A stretch of DNA of 64,000 bases from Promethearchaeota archaeon (GCA_008080735.1 SHMW01000014.1:11490-75489), one strand, 5' to 3'; positions 52,722 through 60,247 are shown, counted from the first letter of the stretch. Notes: generated from the letters alone by a model not told the origin. Numbers and translations: made by a program.

Positions 52722-54029
52722 TTATACAGACATCTTAAAGAGCGTCCGTAAGGCCAAAGACATGATATATTGCTGTATTTGACGTGAACCGCCAACTATT
52801 TCTTGGATTCGAGAAATTCCTATATAGTCTTGCATCAAGGTGTTATCGCAGAGTCCCGCACCCCCCATTAAGTTGGCCGTTTCATAGCAGACGTCCTTAC
52901 AAAGTGATGTACAATCAAATTTCAGTTGAGACGCTGCAGAAACCATTGCTTGACTAATATTTTTTGGAATTTTATCTTCCCCTCCGAATTTTTCGACTTT
53001 CTCATCAAACGCTTCACAGAACTTCAGTAACGCAAGAGTTAAGTTTGTCGTCCTCGCCCAATAGCTCGAGAGAAGGAATCCGACCCCTTGAAATTTGAGG
53101 ATCTCTTGATCGAATTGTTTCCTCATGTTGGCATAGATTGCAGCGTGTGCCACGGAACCCCAACATTCACATATGGCCATAATGGCGATTCCTATACGCT
53201 CGGGGACAAGTCCTTCGAATAAATGTTCTCGACCTTTTCCCACCCCTCCTAAAATATATTCTGGAGGTATGTGTAAGTTTTCAAAATGTTCTTTACCAAG
53301 ATACACTTTTGGTACCCACGGAATGAAGACTCTGTCGCAATGCCATCCCTCCCAATCCGTATCAACAAGGAATTGTGCCATTTTATTACCATTGTTCTTT
53401 TCCGCTGTAGCATAAATAACCGCCCATTTGGAACGGGGTGCGTTAGTATTATAGATTTTATCACCATTTATAATATAACTTCCATCCTCTTGCTCATCGC
53501 ATGTTGTGAGTTGGTGGACGGCATCCGAGCCTCTTTCTGGCTCTGTAATGCATATACATCCAGGAGCATTCCCAATGACTAAATCCTTTAATGCTTCTAA
53601 CCTGATGGGAACATCATCATGATGCCAATGGAGGGGATTAATTGCAAGAACAGTTGCTCCGCCTGCCATCGCAAATTGCGGATCGAACATATCCATCGCC
53701 AAATTCCGCATCAATTCAACGGTTAACCCAAACTCTTCATAATTAAGATCACACTCTTTAAACGGATGTGCCCTGGAAATATAACCTTTCTTCCCGAAAT
53801 CGGGAATCCATTCATAAATATCCTCTTCTGGTCCATGTGTGATTTCATTCTTTTTTTCATATCTCATGCAAAACCTTTGCACGTCTCTGAGAAATCCAAA
53901 CTCTTCTGGCGTTAAGATACTCATCAAATTATTATTTAAGAAGTTGTAGCGATTTTTCAAGCTTAATCCTTCCAAAATATCATCGTTTATTGCCTGAGTC
54001 TGAAATTTTTGACCCATCTTTCTTTTCAC
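52722..54029 (-). CDS. Acyl-CoA dehydrogenase (paralog 2)
   Basis: ITEPERGSD, INGDKIYNTN, RKQFDQEILKFQGV, IQEIVGGS. Confidence 0.93.
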   Translation of the reverse strand: MKRKMGQKFQTQAINDDILEGLSLKNRYNFLNNNLMSILTPEEFGFLRDVQRFCMRYEKKNEITHGPEEDIYEWIPDFGKKGYISRAHPFKECDLNYEEFGLTVELMRNLAMDMFDPQFAMAGGATVLAINPLHWHHDDVPIRLEALKDLVIGNAPGCICITEPERGSDAVHQLTTCDEQEDGSYIINGDKIYNTNAPRSKWAVIYATAEKNNGNKMAQFLVDTDWEGWHCDRVFIPWVPKVYLGKEHFENLHIPPEYILGGVGKGREHLFEGLVPERIGIAIMAICECWGSVAHAAIYANMRKQFDQEILKFQGVGFLLSSYWARTTNLTLALLKFCEAFDEKVEKFGGEDKIPKNISQAMVSAASQLKFDCTSLCKDVCYETANLMGGAGLCDNTLMQDYIGISRIQEIVGGSRQIQQYIMSLALRTLFKMSV

Positions 54030-54200: not shown

Positions 54201-55502
54201 TTAAACAGACATTTTAAACAAGGTTCGTAATGCCATGCTCATGATGTATTGCTGGATTTGTCGACTACCACCAACAATTTCTTGGATCCGTGAAATATTC
54301 ACGTAATCATGGGTTAAAGTGTTATCACTTAATCCGGCACCACCCATTAAGTTGGCACATTCATAGCACACATCCTTGGAAAGCATTGTCGCATGGTATT
54401 TAAATTGAGACGCGGATGCGACCATCGCTTGACTAATATTCTTGGGAATCTTATCTTCTCCGCCGAACTTTTCGACCTTCTCGTCAAAAGCTTCAGCGAA
54501 TTTCAATAATCCAAGCGTGACGTTAGTTGTTCGTGCCCACAAATCGGTTAACAAGAAACCTACGCCTTGGAACTTAAGAATTGCTTGATTAAACTGTTCT
54601 CTTAGGTTGGCATAAATCGCAGCAAATTCTAAAGCACCCCAACATTGAGCTATAGCACCATAGGCTATACCTATCCGTTCAGGAACTAATCCCTCAAAAA
54701 GATGTTCTCGCCCTTTTCCTATACCGCCAAGAATATATTCTTTTGGTACACGGAGATTATCTAAATGTTCTCGTCCGAGATATAATTTAGGAACCCACGG
54801 AATAAAGACTCTATCACAATTCCATCCTTCCCAATCAGTATTGATTAAGAACTGAGCCATTTTATTCCCGTTATTCTTCTCAGCAGTGGCGTATGCGACT
54901 GCCCATTTACTTTTCGGAGCGTTTGTGTTATAGATCTTTTCTCCATTTAAGATAAAGCTTCCATCGCCTTGTTCTTCACACGTGGTTAATTGATGTACAG
55001 CATCTGACCCTCTCTCAGGTTCTGTAATTAATATGCAACCCGCAGCTTGTCCAGTTACAAGATCTTCTAATGCTTCTAGTCGTTCTGGAATGTTTTCGTG
55101 ATGCATGTAAATGGGGTTAATAGCCAATACTGTAGCTCCGCTTCCCATTGCGAATTGTGGATCAAAGTTATCGATTGCGAGATATCTTAACATGTCGGCG
55201 ACTGCACCGTGTTGCTCATAGTTTTGGTCGATTTCGGTGAACGCATGAGCACGAGTAATGTAACCCTTCTTTCCAAAATCGGGTATCCAATCATAGACAT
55301 CTTCTTCTGGACCGTGTGTGACTTTCTTTTCGTATCGTTCACAGAATCGCTCAACTTCCCTGAGCCAGCTAAATTGCTCGGGAGTTAAGATGCTCATCAG
55401 ATTGTTATTCAAGAACTTGTATCGGTTCTTGAGGCTCATCGCTTCTAAAATATCGTCATTGATCGCTTGTGTTTGAAATTTTTTAGCCATATTTTTTCTC
55501 AT
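54201..55502 (-). CDS. Acyl-CoA dehydrogenase (paralog 1)
   Basis: ITEPERGSD, LNGEKIYNTN, REQFNQAILKFQGV, IQEIVGGS. Confidence 0.93.
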   Translation of the reverse strand: MRKNMAKKFQTQAINDDILEAMSLKNRYKFLNNNLMSILTPEQFSWLREVERFCERYEKKVTHGPEEDVYDWIPDFGKKGYITRAHAFTEIDQNYEQHGAVADMLRYLAIDNFDPQFAMGSGATVLAINPIYMHHENIPERLEALEDLVTGQAAGCILITEPERGSDAVHQLTTCEEQGDGSFILNGEKIYNTNAPKSKWAVAYATAEKNNGNKMAQFLINTDWEGWNCDRVFIPWVPKLYLGREHLDNLRVPKEYILGGIGKGREHLFEGLVPERIGIAYGAIAQCWGALEFAAIYANLREQFNQAILKFQGVGFLLTDLWARTTNVTLGLLKFAEAFDEKVEKFGGEDKIPKNISQAMVASASQFKYHATMLSKDVCYECANLMGGAGLSDNTLTHDYVNISRIQEIVGGSRQIQQYIMSMALRTLFKMSV

Positions 55503-55657: not shown

Positions 55658-56410
55658 TTATGTGATTAGATTTCTAAGCCGATTACTGAATTTCTTAGTG
55701 GTAATTAAGCTGGTTTCAAAGGGACAATTTTCCTTAAACAACACAACTGATATAAAATGTTCATTAATGCCTTTTAATGATAAAATACCAAAATCCTCTA
55801 GAGAAATCAATTCGTTGATCTTATAATTGCCAGTTATAAACCTTCCTTCAAGCAATCTAATAATCTCTGATAACACATGGGGGTCTAAATATGACACGAT
55901 TACTCGCCCAGTTTGAGTTAATAGTGCTGATGAGACCACATACACAGAAAAAGTTTGTAGTTCATTGAATACTTCAATTATATCATTTTTCACATCATCA
56001 GATACTAATGGTTTATTATTTTCGAATATATTTTCGATGTTTTGTTCAAAATCGTTAAACTTAGAAATCTCTCCATCAAATTTGTGAGTGAGGTCATCTT
56101 GATCAAATTTTTGGAGAAATTGGGCCTTGACTTCTCGTAATTGATTTCTCAGTTCTACGAGATTATCTGTTCTATCGGCGAATAATGCAAATAATAATTC
56201 ATCCCGTCCAATCCGTTCAATTTCAAAAATAAAACGAAAGGGACCGACTTCAATCTCACTAAGTTTTTCTGTTTTTAGTGTTTGCTTAACGAATGAAAAT
56301 ATAGCACTTAAAAAACTACTGGTTAATTTCACATCGAAAATATCTTCATAAGTTTTATAAAAGATTAGTTCTCCTGTATTTCCTTTCTGTATAAAGACGT
56401 TTTTTATCAT
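55658..56410 (-). CDS. Longin-like + Roadblock/LC7 fusion protein (eukaryotic-signature type)
   Basis: N-half follows the longin pattern (NVFIQ..GELIF...LTSSFLSAIFSF...EIEVG.FRFIF...LFALFAD...QFLQKF). C-half follows the roadblock pattern (VVSSALLTQTGRVIVS...ELIS....ILSLKGI...ISVVL). Confidence 0.7.
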   Translation of the reverse strand: MIKNVFIQKGNTGELIFYKTYEDIFDVKLTSSFLSAIFSFVKQTLKTEKLSEIEVGPFRFIFEIERIGRDELLFALFADRTDNLVELRNQLREVKAQFLQKFDQDDLTHKFDGEISKFNDFEQNIENIFENNKPLVSDDVKNDIIEVFNELQTFSVYVVSSALLTQTGRVIVSYLDPHVLSEIIRLLEGRFITGNYKINELISLEDFGILSLKGINEHFISVVLFKENCPFETSLITTKKFSNRLRNLIT

Positions 56411-56630
56411 TGTGACGGATAGATGATGTTTAATGTTGCGTTAAAGAGACAACCCTATATAAACAACAAATAAATCTATCTATAAAAAGATTTACTCACA
56501 TTAAATTCTATAGGCTCAGTCTATTCTTCTCTTTTAGAGAATGCTAGAGAATTATATGTTTTATAAAACATAATGAACAAAAATGAAAATATCAAGAGAG
56601 AAAAAGAAATAGACTGGGATTTGATCTTAT

Positions 56631-57413
56631 TTAAAAACCGTCAAATTTCGCCCATTCATCTTCCTCTTCTTCAAATTCCTCATATTCATCATCCTCTTCG
56701 AGCTCTTCGTACTCCTCACCCTCTTCATAACGAACCTCCTCCTCATATTCATATTCCTCCTCATCAAAGCTTAATGCCTTCTCCAGCTCCGAGATAGACT
56801 CTTCTTGAGGTGCGGCAACTCTGACCTGTGGTACGGGTTCGGCTTCTTCCTCTTCTTCTTTCTTTTTTTCTACAAGTTTCAAGTAGTCTCCATGGATTTT
56901 GATGGTAATTGGGGTCTCTTCTTGTAATAAACGAACAACTACTTCCTCATTGCTAGAAGTATCATGGGGCATTCTCATTACCTTTGCCCGTGCACCTTCA
57001 AATACGCCGCTAATAATTTCGACTGTATCTCCGACTTCCAGAAATTCGGTCACGGAGCGTGGTAAGAGTACATGCTTTATCTCCTCTAATACGATATTTT
57101 GGACAATTCTGCCCTTAATATGCGGGATCCCTTGTACTGCGATTTGCACATCTCGCTTTTGAGGAGCTTCAAAAAAGATATACCCCGGAAGTAAAGGAGA
57201 GACCAACATAGCTTTAATATCGGGAATGACATCTAAAATTCTAAAGCGATAAAAGATCTGTTTTAGTATGTTACTTTCCTGATTGATGGTGGTGCGCACG
57301 GCAAATAAAGTGGTCAGATCTTCTTGCCCTTCCACCTGAGCACTGCTTACAGCCTCGTCAGCATCAATATCTTCTACTTCCGGATCCGTAAATTTCTCTT
57401 CCTGCTCGGTCAT
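56631..57413 (-). CDS. spt5: Transcription elongation factor Spt5 (NGN+KOW) with acidic N- and C-terminal extensions
   Basis: FAVRTTINQE, LPGYIFFEA, GIPHIKG (NGN domain); GDTVEIISGVFEGARAKV (KOW). Confidence 0.93.
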   Translation of the reverse strand: MTEQEEKFTDPEVEDIDADEAVSSAQVEGQEDLTTLFAVRTTINQESNILKQIFYRFRILDVIPDIKAMLVSPLLPGYIFFEAPQKRDVQIAVQGIPHIKGRIVQNIVLEEIKHVLLPRSVTEFLEVGDTVEIISGVFEGARAKVMRMPHDTSSNEEVVVRLLQEETPITIKIHGDYLKLVEKKKEEEEEAEPVPQVRVAAPQEESISELEKALSFDEEEYEYEEEVRYEEGEEYEELEEDDEYEEFEEEEDEWAKFDGF

Positions 57414-57613
57414 CTTTTCTCTCTACCTAATTTGAATTGTTCTTAATTTGATGGTTCAATAAATTATTAGAAAAATAAGTTATATAAAACTAAGTGTTAC
57501 GATGGTTAAAAAATTTTTGATGCCTATAAGTGAAATTAGAATCCGTCGAAATACCCTAAAAATCTAGGGGAGAGGTGTAAAATATGGAGGTTTTAAAAAG
57601 CTGTAGAACCCTT

Positions 57614-57958
57614 TTATACGGGGATGTTGTTAATATCAAGGATTTCAGGAATTTTGCCGTGCCTTTGTAACCAAGACACTTCATTTTTTTTATAACGCCA
57701 AGTAATTTCACATTTCCCGAGCTGGTCTTTCGTTTCGGTTTCCCAATCCCATGGATTTACGACCACCAAATCTCCCTTACGTATCCATACCCGCTTTTTG
57801 ATTTTTCCCCGAATACGTCCAATTCTATGTTTACCATCCTCACAAAACACACGCATTCGATCATTTCCGTAGATATCAATCACACGCGCAAACATCTCGC
57901 CAGCACGTCGATTTGGCGCCTTTACCCGTCCCACACCCTCATCAGAATCTCTACTCAT
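57614..57958 (-). CDS. eif1a: Translation initiation factor aIF-1A
   Basis: GEMFARV...GNDRMRVFCEDGKHRIGRIRGKIKKRVWIRKGDLVVVNPWDW...ITWRY. Confidence 0.95.
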   Translation of the reverse strand: MSRDSDEGVGRVKAPNRRAGEMFARVIDIYGNDRMRVFCEDGKHRIGRIRGKIKKRVWIRKGDLVVVNPWDWETETKDQLGKCEITWRYKKNEVSWLQRHGKIPEILDINNIPV

Positions 57959-58015
57959 ACTTTTTTCCTTTGATTAATTAATTGAAATTTAATTATAATT
58001 TTATAATGAATATAC

Positions 58016-58366
58016 TTAGATTTTATCATCAGGTTTATAATCTCCTTTAATAAAAATCACCTTTATTGGCTCTGATGAATCGTTTCGAATGTTATGCATT
58101 TCTTTTGGTTCAATAAGAAATACACTCCCTTCGGGGGCCTTATATTCCTTTTTATCCACTAGCATAATTCCGTCTCCTTCCATAAAATAAAATGTTTCAT
58201 CAATAATATTATGACCGTGGGCTTTATCAGCCATTTTATCACCGGGCATAATTTTAATAACCCCCCAATCGATGCTGGGTCCTCGCATAAGGTATTTCAC
58301 CCCAGAATCACCATCGCGATATTCAAAATCTTGTTCACTTACTCTTTTCATAAAAATATCACTCAA
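58016..58366 (-). CDS. Cupin-domain protein
   Basis: HGHNIIDETFYFMEG and EPKEMHNIRN cupin motifs. Confidence 0.9.
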   Translation of the reverse strand: MSDIFMKRVSEQDFEYRDGDSGVKYLMRGPSIDWGVIKIMPGDKMADKAHGHNIIDETFYFMEGDGIMLVDKKEYKAPEGSVFLIEPKEMHNIRNDSSEPIKVIFIKGDYKPDDKI

Positions 58367-58484
58367 ACGTTTCCAATAAGGTTTAGGAAATAATATTCTA
58401 CGTTCTTAATAATTTTTATTATAATAAGCTAAAAACTTTGGTCTGAGAAATATGTAAAATTCATATCTATTCCCACGACTATTT

Positions 58485-59012
58485 TTAAAGTTTCCCTAAC
58501 TCTTCAAGGATGTTAATCGTAAGAATTTCAAAGGATTTCTTTACATTTTCTCCCGTCTTAGACGATATTTTCAAGTAGTCGATTAAATCATAATGTTCCA
58601 TCAATTCTTCCACATACTCCTCATTAACCGATATCTCGTCTTTTAAATCATTTTTTGTGCCTATAAATAAAATAGGGAGTTGATCATTATCTGATCGACA
58701 AATTTCAATCCATTGTCCAATTCTATCAAGAGTTAACGGACGAGTCAAATCGAACATTAACAGGGCACCTTTCGCCCCAGAAGTATAGGATTTCAATAAA
58801 AAACGAAATCGCTCTTGTCCTCCAAAATCCCATAGTTGGAGCATTATGTTTTTTCCTTCAATATTAACTTCTTTAAGAAAGAATTCTACTCCAATTGTCA
58901 TCTTGGTATTTGCTTCAAATTTGCCTTCGACATAGCGATGGAGTAGCGTTGTTTTGCCCACCCCGCCTTCTCCTGCCGTCAATACTTTTAACACAATGGG
59001 TTTCCCAGACAT
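58485..59012 (-). CDS. Rab-like small GTPase
   Basis: G1 GEGGVGKT, TIGVEF, G3 WDFGGQERF, G4 TKND, G5 SSK. Confidence 0.93.
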   Translation of the reverse strand: MSGKPIVLKVLTAGEGGVGKTTLLHRYVEGKFEANTKMTIGVEFFLKEVNIEGKNIMLQLWDFGGQERFRFLLKSYTSGAKGALLMFDLTRPLTLDRIGQWIEICRSDNDQLPILFIGTKNDLKDEISVNEEYVEELMEHYDLIDYLKISSKTGENVKKSFEILTINILEELGKL

Positions 59013-59183
59013 TTTCCTCGATAGAATAATTTGATTTAGTGTTATTTAAACAAAAGACCTTATTTCCTAATTATAAAATTCACATTAAAACATTACGAAA
59101 TGAACGTTTTAGTATATATGATTAAACTAGCCTATGATTTAAATAATTATTTTTTTAATTTTTTTTTTATTTTTCTTACAGTT

Positions 59184-59645
59184 TTACACTCTTGTTATAG
59201 AAATAAATTGTTTTTGTTTTAAATAAATTGCAGAAATTTGTGATTGTTTAGCTTTTTTTCTTAATTCATAATCATTTGTCGCTAAAAATATATGATGATA
59301 TATATCTTTCAAACTTAGCACCTTTCTAAGAAGAAATTCGTCCGTTGTTTCATCTTTTTCTTTCACTTCATCAATAAAAGAAATATGGTACTCTTGTCTC
59401 TTCATTTCTAAATAGCGTTTTCCCGCCTCAAATTGAGCTCGAAATTTGTTATTTTTTCCTTTTTTCGCTAACCGCTTTTGTTTAGCTTTAAGTTCATCAT
59501 ATACTTGCTGATAAATAATAAAATGAGTTGCCCCTTCCAATAGATAAACTATATCCTCAATGTAATCAATGCGAAATTGAATGGGAAGCAAAATAAAATT
59601 AGAATCCACCACGACAACATTATTATCCCGTTCTCTCTTATCCAT
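59184..59645 (-). CDS. PIN-domain nuclease, archaeal Fcf1/Utp24-like
   Basis: VVVDSNF, VYDEL, TDEFLL, LATNDYELRKK. Confidence 0.85.
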   Translation of the reverse strand: MDKRERDNNVVVVDSNFILLPIQFRIDYIEDIVYLLEGATHFIIYQQVYDELKAKQKRLAKKGKNNKFRAQFEAGKRYLEMKRQEYHISFIDEVKEKDETTDEFLLRKVLSLKDIYHHIFLATNDYELRKKAKQSQISAIYLKQKQFISITRV

Positions 59646-59716
59646 TATACCTTTTCATATAGAAATTTTTCAACTAAATTAATATTTTTATAAAGATAAG
59701 AAGAAAATTTTGAATC

Positions 59717-60247
59717 TTAGGGTTGCTGGCGCTCTAATATCCTTTTGGTCAATAATTCAAACGACTCTTGGACATTATGTCCTGTTTTGCTGGAAATTTT
59801 GATATAATCGAAAAGATTTAATTCCTCTAAAAAGCTTTTGGCATAATCATCTTGGACCATAATTTCATCCTCCAAATCTAACTTTGTACCAACAAATAGA
59901 ATTGGCAGGTTAGGGTCCCCTTTTCTAACAATATTTACCCATTGCTCTAAATTTTCAAGTGTTTGAATCCGAGTTAAATCAAACATCAAAAGGGCTCCTT
60001 TAGCTCCTAACACATAGCTTTCTAACAAAAAGCGAAACCGTTCTTGCCCTCCAAAATCCCAGAGTTGAAGAGTACACTGTTGCCCATCAACCTCGACTTC
60101 TTTTAAGAAAAACTCCACACCGATGGTCATTTTGGTCGACTGGGAGAATTTTCCTTCCACATAGCGGTGAAGAAGCGTTGTCTTTCCAACTCCGCCCTCT
60201 CCCGCGGTCAGAAGCTTTAGAATAAACTTTTTGCCCATTTTCTTCAC
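59717..60247 (-). CDS. Rab-like small GTPase
   Basis: GEGGVGKT, TIGVEF, WDFGGQERF, TKLD, SSK. Confidence 0.93.
   Translation of the reverse strand: MKKMGKKFILKLLTAGEGGVGKTTLLHRYVEGKFSQSTKMTIGVEFFLKEVEVDGQQCTLQLWDFGGQERFRFLLESYVLGAKGALLMFDLTRIQTLENLEQWVNIVRKGDPNLPILFVGTKLDLEDEIMVQDDYAKSFLEELNLFDYIKISSKTGHNVQESFELLTKRILERQQP

Follow-up and report, generated by a model that had tools for sequence, protein, structure and literature searches.

A conserved acidic tail with a tryptophan-containing end on Spt5 of one Lokiarchaeal order

In one Lokiarchaeal order, the transcription elongation factor Spt5 continues beyond its NGN and KOW domains into a long acidic tail, predicted to be disordered, which varies in sequence except for two short motifs, the second of which forms the extreme C-terminus around a conserved tryptophan. 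A second elongation factor of the same cells, Elf1, carries a C-terminal extension of parallel architecture. We propose that the Spt5 tail probably acts in trans, offering an aromatic docking motif on the elongation complex to a partner protein. Spt5/NusG is, to our knowledge, the only transcription factor common to all life, and for archaea it is regarded as a minimal NGN-KOW protein. The presence of a conserved, motif-bearing Spt5 tail throughout an Asgard order, together with a matching Elf1 extension, shows that disordered "tentacles" were acquired on archaeal elongation factors too, and the 10-residue terminal peptide with its invariant Trp offers a concrete handle for finding the partner. 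Should the partner be a histone, the tail would bear on the pre-eukaryotic evolution of transcription through chromatin, and should it be a translation factor or another factor, the tail would represent a new coupling route. The full-text literature that we searched, including PMC13289920, PMC10833476, PMC7289017, and PMC12993045, does not describe tails on Spt5 or Elf1 of this kind.

A single-copy Spt5 with a canonical core

The window, i.e., the whole stretch of 64,000 nucleotides from a Promethearchaeota archaeon that was analyzed (GCA_008080735.1 SHMW01000014.1:11490-75489), encodes a 260-residue protein that is a member of the archaeal Spt5 family and the cell's general elongation factor (Table 1). 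The NCBIfam equivalog model for Spt5, TIGR00405, covers residues 37-186 over its entire length (profile positions 1-145 of 145) with a score of 109.5 bits (cut-off, 69.95 bits). Pfam's own KOW model was not listed for this protein at E <= 0.01. Close homologues in our homologue search bear the name Spt5 and originate from Lokiarchaeota or Promethearchaeota MAGs; one of them is a 98%-identical protein of that name from a Lokiarchaeota MAG. As in other archaeal Spt5 proteins, which comprise NGN and KOW in about 150 residues, the core (residues 36-186) matches the family profile and the solved structures, with the NGN region aligning to PDB entries 3p8b, 4zn1, and 9bct. The solved archaeal chains found in the PDB sequence search (147-163 aa) align to residues 36-190 only. 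A gene for the partner Spt4 is present, and there is one Spt4 and one spt5 in the genome, which is 93% complete; a second spt5 near rpl11, for which the earlier note had proposed to look, was not found in it. In characterized Spt5 proteins the NGN domain binds the RNA polymerase clamp and, by family membership, the NGN-KOW core of the window protein should bind Spt4 and the clamp as in characterized archaea.

Unlike typical archaeal Spt5, the window protein adds an N-terminal extension of 33 residues and a C-terminal tail of 74 residues with two motifs, and its gene does not lie beside rpl11. In a full-length AlphaFold2 model, built with a 36-sequence alignment, NGN and KOW are folded with pLDDT values of 80-92, and residues 1-30 and 187-247 fall below 50, which predicts disorder. 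According to TIGR00405 and the model, there is only one KOW domain, and the tail contains neither repeats nor a fold. Charge is distributed very unevenly, with -12 in the N-extension (residues 1-33), a neutral core, and -33 in the C-tail (residues 187-260), giving -45 for the whole protein. Thus, an Spt5 with additional acidic tails, as first noticed from the sequence, is what the open reading frame and the profile match confirm.

Among the 80 other archaeal loci that we compared, the majority, with those of Thor, Hermod, Odin, and Baldr among them, have rpl11 immediately after spt5. This adjacency is typical of archaeal Spt5 but not strictly defining. In the genome studied here, the rpl11-rpl1-rpl10 cluster is found on a separate contig (C15), without spt5 and with a membrane protein upstream, so that the earlier note was also right to place the gene outside its usual context. 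A TATA-like box upstream of the start codon suggests that spt5 has its own, putative promoter. When the 200 bp upstream of spt5 were compared with this genome by blastn, the matches were confined to short AT-rich stretches, so that a duplicated upstream module shared with rpl7ae is absent.

Table 1. Features of the spt5 locus and other genes mentioned in the text. Positions are those of the window unless a contig or locus is given.
Feature	Position	Strand	Residues	Basis and remarks
spt5 coding sequence	56631..57413	-	1-260	260 codons and stop (56631-56633); ORF list, translation
Acidic N-extension	57315..57413	-	1-33	Predicted disordered; charge count, pLDDT <50
NGN domain	57066..57308	-	36-116	Pfam PF03439, E 2.8e-14; AlphaFold2 pLDDT 88-92
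KOW domain	56868..57041	-	~125-182	Five-strand barrel; TIGR00405; AlphaFold2 strands 130-182, pLDDT 80-90
Acidic C-tail	56634..56855	-	187-260	Predicted disordered, 74 aa; charge count, AlphaFold2
Motif A	56757..56801	-	205-219	Predicted short helix ending ..(A/K)(I/L)SF(D/E)(D/E); conservation, tail-only model
Motif B	56634..56663	-	251-260	EDEWAKFDGF-COOH, putative docking motif; conservation
TATA-like TTTATATAA	57480-57488	-		66 nt upstream of ATG; sequence reading alone
Shine-Dalgarno-like AGGTAGAG	57421-57428	-		7 nt upstream of ATG; same basis
aIF1A gene	57614..57958	-		Pfam eIF-1a, E 1.3e-21; 200 bp upstream of spt5
Conserved gene block	55658-60247	-		Ras-like GTPase, PIN_9, Ras-like GTPase, cupin, aIF1A, spt5, 250-aa protein
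Tandem paralogous ORFs	52722-54029 and 54201-55502	-		~434 aa; alike on inspection
Spt4 gene	G000:C9:27329-27508			PF06093, E 7.8e-14
Elf1 gene	G000 contig C1, 64094-64675	-	1-193	Outside the window; also locus L224:1098-1676 (-)
L32e with acidic tail	G000 contig C6, 88393-88890	+		Also locus L225:594-1088
Mre11-like ORF	C46:13057-14640			527 aa

The C-terminal tail is conserved in two short motifs

The C-tail contains 37 Asp/Glu residues (50%) and 10 aromatic residues, and it is present in every family f1 homologue among those listed, with a length of 68-80 aa and a composition that is 44% acidic and 11% aromatic. Conservation was measured in an alignment of 121 sequences, consisting of the query and the best 120 of 590 homologues, all 120 of which are 238-277 aa long. 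In these 121 sequences the mean frequency of the most common residue is 0.955 for motif B, 0.94 for the core, 0.76 for motif A, and 0.66 for the linkers, and the 9-mer DEWAKFDGF occurs in 106 of the 121. In the more divergent set of 36 sequences, which reaches down to 33% identity, only 22 columns are invariant; W254 is among them, and at least 90% of the sequences keep each of F216, D252, K256, and F257. Motif A has the consensus ..LEKA(I/L)SF(D/E)D.. and forms a helix at positions 22-31 of a model of the tail alone. Other families of the window's order end in variants of motif B such as DDWAKFF, DEWSKFTF, and DDEWT.

Between the motifs, the linkers drift in sequence and length yet remain acidic, and tails range from ~70 to ~150 aa in the broader alignment. 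Short conserved motifs separated by drifting acidic linkers are what one expects of short linear motifs carried on a disordered tether, and conservation to this degree exceeds chance. The tail is thus not peculiar to one strain but conserved across the order, and its WAKF end behaves, as far as conservation tells, like the docking motif that the earlier note had suspected in the terminal WAKFDGF. A regular spacing of the aromatic residues, which had also been claimed, is not found. They are enriched, at 5-12 per tail, but only F216, W254, F257, and F260 are conserved positions.

The N-extension behaves differently from the core. Its start, M-x-(D/E)-Q-E-E, is conserved and the remainder is variable, with a mean top-residue frequency of 0.49. 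Among homologues with a locatable NGN start it measures 23-50 aa and carries a net charge of -3 to -15, and it is absent in the sister families f2, f28, and f29 as sampled.

Within the genome's ORFs, the motif [DE][DE]W[AS][KR]F and related patterns match Spt5 only. Because no other protein of the genome shares motif B, a family of motifs that recognize a common receptor is not indicated. A pattern drawn up afterwards, [DE][DE].?[FW].{1,4}GF.{0,3}$, matches three of 10,793 ORFs (Spt5, Elf1, and an unannotated ORF of 418 aa), but it is too post hoc to count. The general combination of an acidic C-terminus with a hydrophobic end is found in 10 of the 10,793 ORFs, including ribosomal P0, aP1, and L32e, an Mre11-like protein, Spt5, and Elf1. 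Ribosomal protein L32e (PF01655, residues 20-124) has an extra acidic C-tail of ~40 aa that ends in ..ELEDFDY, and the acidic C-terminal tail of the Mre11-like protein ends in ..DIDDIIDDGELDL.

Long Spt5 tails were seen in one order only

The survey of Spt5 tails, defined as the residues beyond KOW, covered 201 Asgard genomes, 151 from the window's class, and 80 archaeal loci with names; the labels Thor, Heimdall, Hermod, and non-Asgard were taken from record titles. Among the scanned genomes and loci, tails of at least 74 residues are confined to the window's order (families f1, f2, f28, and f29). There they measure 74 to ~125 aa and end in D(D/E)W(A/S)KF.. in f1 and f2 and in DDEWT, DDDWI, or EDWK in f28. 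As to other orders of the same class, f31 has no tail, f30 has one of ~40 aa, and f32 one of ~55-60 aa. Thor-labelled proteins have tails of 15-42 aa ending in DSFWAHD and a zinc-finger insertion in NGN, Heimdall-labelled ones tails of 35-39 aa ending in DDVFTELFKS, and Hermod-labelled ones tails of 10-14 aa ending in EEELLEL. The median in other Asgard families is 5 aa, and families with a short or absent tail are common in the sample. For the 55 loci with non-Asgard titles, the median is 2 aa, i.e., Spt5 ends at KOW.

Because sister orders of the class have short tails or none, the long W-K-F tail is, judged by its distribution, a derived trait of one Lokiarchaeal order, and acidic tails with a hydrophobic end are, in the sequences sampled, a looser Asgard-wide tendency. 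Long tails being the mark of a single clade, the comparison draws on only a few evolutionarily independent events. The insertion in thorarchaeotal Spt5 (L033-L037 and the Thor-labelled L075, L079, L082, and L090) comprises ~50-60 aa within NGN and follows the pattern C-x2-C-x12-H-x3-C, resembling a C2H2/C2HC zinc finger.

Eukaryotic Spt5 (DSIF) likewise carries an acidic disordered extension on an NGN-KOW factor. It differs, however, in that the conserved extension is C-terminal in the window protein, which has one KOW domain instead of several and no CTR repeats, and the PDB sequence search returned no eukaryotic Spt5 chain at E <= 0.001. The proposal that the window protein is an intermediate between archaeal and eukaryotic Spt5 is therefore not sustained: besides these differences in architecture, the N-extension is poorly conserved and missing from the sister families sampled, the Heimdall-labelled tail is shorter and different, and the restricted distribution within the window's class is that of a derived feature. 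What stands of the earlier note's interpretation is the genuinely tailed Spt5 and its genomic context, but not the intermediate status; a strain-specific or unconserved tail, which the note had named as a ground for refutation, is not what the homologues show. The acidic N-tail has been called unique to eukaryotic Spt5 (PMC8886531, 2022), a statement that the short acidic N-extension described here weakly qualifies.

Elf1 is extended in parallel

In Elf1 of the same genome, a zinc ribbon (PF05129) occupies residues 2-76 and is followed by a helical block of ~70 aa and a charged tail, which contains ..ESLF.. and has a near-invariant end, ..DDPGFLEF (110 of 121 homologues). Like Spt5, it is a polymerase-cleft factor with a lineage-specific C-terminal extension, an internal aromatic motif, and a near-invariant aromatic end. 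Unlike the Spt5 tail, the Elf1 extension contains a helical block, and its Lys and Glu residues are mixed, so that it is not purely acidic. Homology of the two tails was ruled out (hhalign probability 0.1%), which leaves a parallel architecture only; as their profiles show no similarity, a shared partner is suggested by architecture and nothing else.

Among the 201 Asgard genomes, Elf1 frames reach 171 aa or more (mostly 193-211) in f1 and f2 alone, the families in which both Spt5 and Elf1 are extended, and elsewhere Elf1 frames measure 75-134 aa. In f31, Spt5 ends at KOW and Elf1 has a long acidic tail ending in ..DEDDW or ..EKWTDKWED. Which of the two cleft-closing factors bears an acidic tail with a near-terminal Trp therefore varies, in the sequences compared, with the lineage. 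This placement fits a function of the whole elongation complex that is directed at a third party.

The f31 Elf1 proteins (L267 = G219:C64; L268 = G223:C1) contain three tandem zinc ribbons in open frames of 261-320 aa. In elf1 of genus g3 and others (G159, G117, G030, G019, G153, and G162), an in-frame stop interrupts the zinc-ribbon match within a slightly longer stretch.

The tail probably docks on a partner in trans

We regard docking on a partner in trans as the probable role of the tail, given its pattern of conservation, its predicted disorder, its free C-terminus, and a module that changes place between Spt5 and Elf1; both the docking function and the action in trans are what we infer from these features. 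Spt5 of the window's order has gained a flexible polyanionic C-tail of 74 to ~125 residues, free to drift in sequence except for the short helix ..SF(D/E)D and the terminal amphipathic D-E-W-A-K-F-D-G-F-COOH around the invariant Trp. In the mechanism that we envisage, the acidic linker would remain extended, repelled from DNA and RNA, and would serve as a leash that lets the aromatic motif reach tens of angstroms from the polymerase (up to ~200 A by our estimate, if fully extended). On the partner protein, the motif would then dock into a basic-rimmed hydrophobic pocket, and docking would retain the partner at the elongating polymerase.

Acidic runs joined to a conserved aromatic or hydrophobic peptide dock on partners in the ribosomal P0/aP1 proteins, at the C-terminus of bacterial SSB, in activation domains, and in the acidic region of WASP-family proteins, which has a conserved Trp. 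None of these is related in sequence to ..DEWAKFDGF, and the resemblance is one of possible mechanism, not of membership. Eukaryotic Spt5N, also an acidic tail with an aromatic motif, is a further model for this mode of action. Docking is favored, too, by the rarity of such tails in the genome, where the known docking tails of P0 and aP1 are among the few, and by the recurrence of shorter acidic tails with hydrophobic or aromatic ends in Thor-, Heimdall-, and Hermod-labelled genomes but not in the 55 loci with non-Asgard titles. Against docking on a partner speak the lack of profile similarity between the Spt5 and Elf1 tails, the absence of a counterpart of motif B elsewhere in the genome, and the small number of independent events behind the comparison. 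In addition, a conserved C-terminal peptide could equally serve binding in cis, protein turnover, or localization.

Histones displaced during transcription, as dimers or tetramers, are one plausible candidate partner nested within the docking proposal, with a minority of its probability. The tails of Spt5 and Elf1 would capture the histones that polymerase displaces, shield their DNA-binding surfaces, and aid their passage or their return to DNA, which strikes us as rather unlikely on the whole. In favor of it, the tail with its 50% acidic residues, 10 aromatics, and conserved aromatic anchors resembles histone-binding tails. Spt5N, MCM2N, and the FACT C-tails share with the window Spt5, at the level of sequence, an acidic disordered region with such anchors, and there are four canonical histone genes in the genome. 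Eukaryotic Spt5N binds H3-H4 via a conserved motif with an essential Phe, which in yeast reads F-x3-E-x2-V (PMC8886531). For the yeast elongation complex, contacts with exposed histones have been proposed for the acidic N-tail of Spt5 and the acidic C-tail of Elf1 (PMC12462365), and these two factors are the ones extended here. Archaeal Spt4/5 helps transcription through histone-bound DNA, according to the part of a review (PMC12993045) that cites Sanders et al. (2019). The stretch F216-x3-E220-x2-Y223 looks like the Spt5N motif, but we take it as a chance occurrence in an acid-rich stretch, and its Glu position is not kept in homologues.

Several points weigh against histones. The conserved tail is C-terminal, after KOW, unlike the position of eukaryotic Spt5N; Methanocaldococcus has histones, yet its Spt5 ends at KOW; and Asgard families with short or no tails are frequent, as shown above. 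The near-invariant W-x-K-F suggests a specific pocket rather than a general attraction between polyanion and histone, and nothing unusual was noted in the four histones of the genome, which are minimal (66-72 aa). A complex prediction of the tail with two copies of a Lokiarchaeal histone and aIF1A gave a score of 0.00, which is evidence neither way. In its broadest form, the idea would be that the Spt5 and Elf1 of Lokiarchaeia carry interchangeable acidic tails with near-terminal Trp/Phe that jointly take up histones, or some other basic chromatin protein, and return them during elongation, as a prokaryotic counterpart, independent or ancestral, of Spt5N and the Elf1 C-tail; we give this, too, limited credence.

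Less probable still is a role in cis, in which the tail would fold onto Spt5 itself (the clamp-binding face of NGN, or KOW) or onto the polymerase and its RNA and DNA paths, either gating loading or competing with nascent RNA as a nucleic-acid mimic. The tail directly follows KOW, which sits near the RNA exit in characterized complexes, and with a net charge of -45 the protein would tend not to bind nucleic acids non-specifically. Interdomain autoinhibition is known in the NusG/Spt5 family from RfaH, and the acidic tails of SSB proteins and HMGB1 act by folding back or by competition. However, AlphaFold2 gave no sign that motif B packs on the protein's own domains, as its pLDDT is no higher in the full-length model (68) than in the tail alone (78-81), although this comparison is a weak test. 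Furthermore, the occurrence of a Trp-ended tail on Elf1 in f31 and the different ending in f28 are hard to square with a binding site that is specific to the Spt5 core.

Gene neighborhood of spt5 and a possible link to translation

Across the genera of f1, the genes keep a constant order, in which a PIN gene flanked by two Ras-like GTPase genes is followed by cupin, aIF1A, spt5, the gene for the 250-aa protein, and a presumed acyl-CoA dehydrogenase. The gene for aIF1A adjoins spt5 in 12 of the 14 f1 loci examined; in some f1 genomes (G030 and G183) it is found away from spt5. Family f2 and two divergent long-tail relatives also keep spt5 close to genes for aIF1A, a Ras-like GTPase, and a PIN_9 protein, in differing arrangements, whereas in none of the 80 other archaeal loci is aIF1A near spt5. 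The 250-aa protein encoded after spt5 had no significant Pfam match.

This closeness of spt5 and aIF1A, kept through three arrangements across the order, is one point in favor of a tail that either imitates the P-stalk C-terminus or binds aIF1A or aIF5B, and thereby tethers the polymerase to the lead ribosome or to translation factors. Such a tether, which we judge very improbable, would have a precedent in bacteria, where the KOW domain of NusG couples transcription to the ribosome. NusG-type coupling of transcription and translation has been reviewed for archaea (PMC8116511). The architecture of the Spt5 tail is also like that of the P0/aP1 tails of this genome, in which an acidic run is followed by ..GIGSLF-COOH. 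P-stalk tails bind translation GTPases through an end of the form G-x-G-x-L-F, however, and share only the general architecture with Spt5, the terminal motifs being different (WAKFDGF vs. GIGSLF). Gene proximity within a clade may be inherited synteny, and the displaced aIF1A of the two f1 genomes above also speaks against the link. Lastly, an essential protein might tolerate a functionless low-complexity expansion at its end, as the compositional bias and the variable length and sequence of the linkers might suggest. This is scarcely credible in view of the invariant Trp and the near-invariant 9-mer, which are kept in hundreds of homologues, and of the second conserved motif, and conservation comes close to refuting it.

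Downstream of the spt5 block lie two tandem paralogous ORFs, presumably acyl-CoA dehydrogenases, and the pair is kept among f1 relatives. The aIF1A proteins of f1 (that of the window and those of loci L164-L193) often have a Lys/Arg-rich N-tail starting MAKKKK... and a conserved C-terminal ..IPEILDINNIP(V/L/F), tails that recall those of eukaryotic eIF1A, whose N-tail is basic and whose end reads DIDDI. In several genomes, aIF1A is present in two copies.
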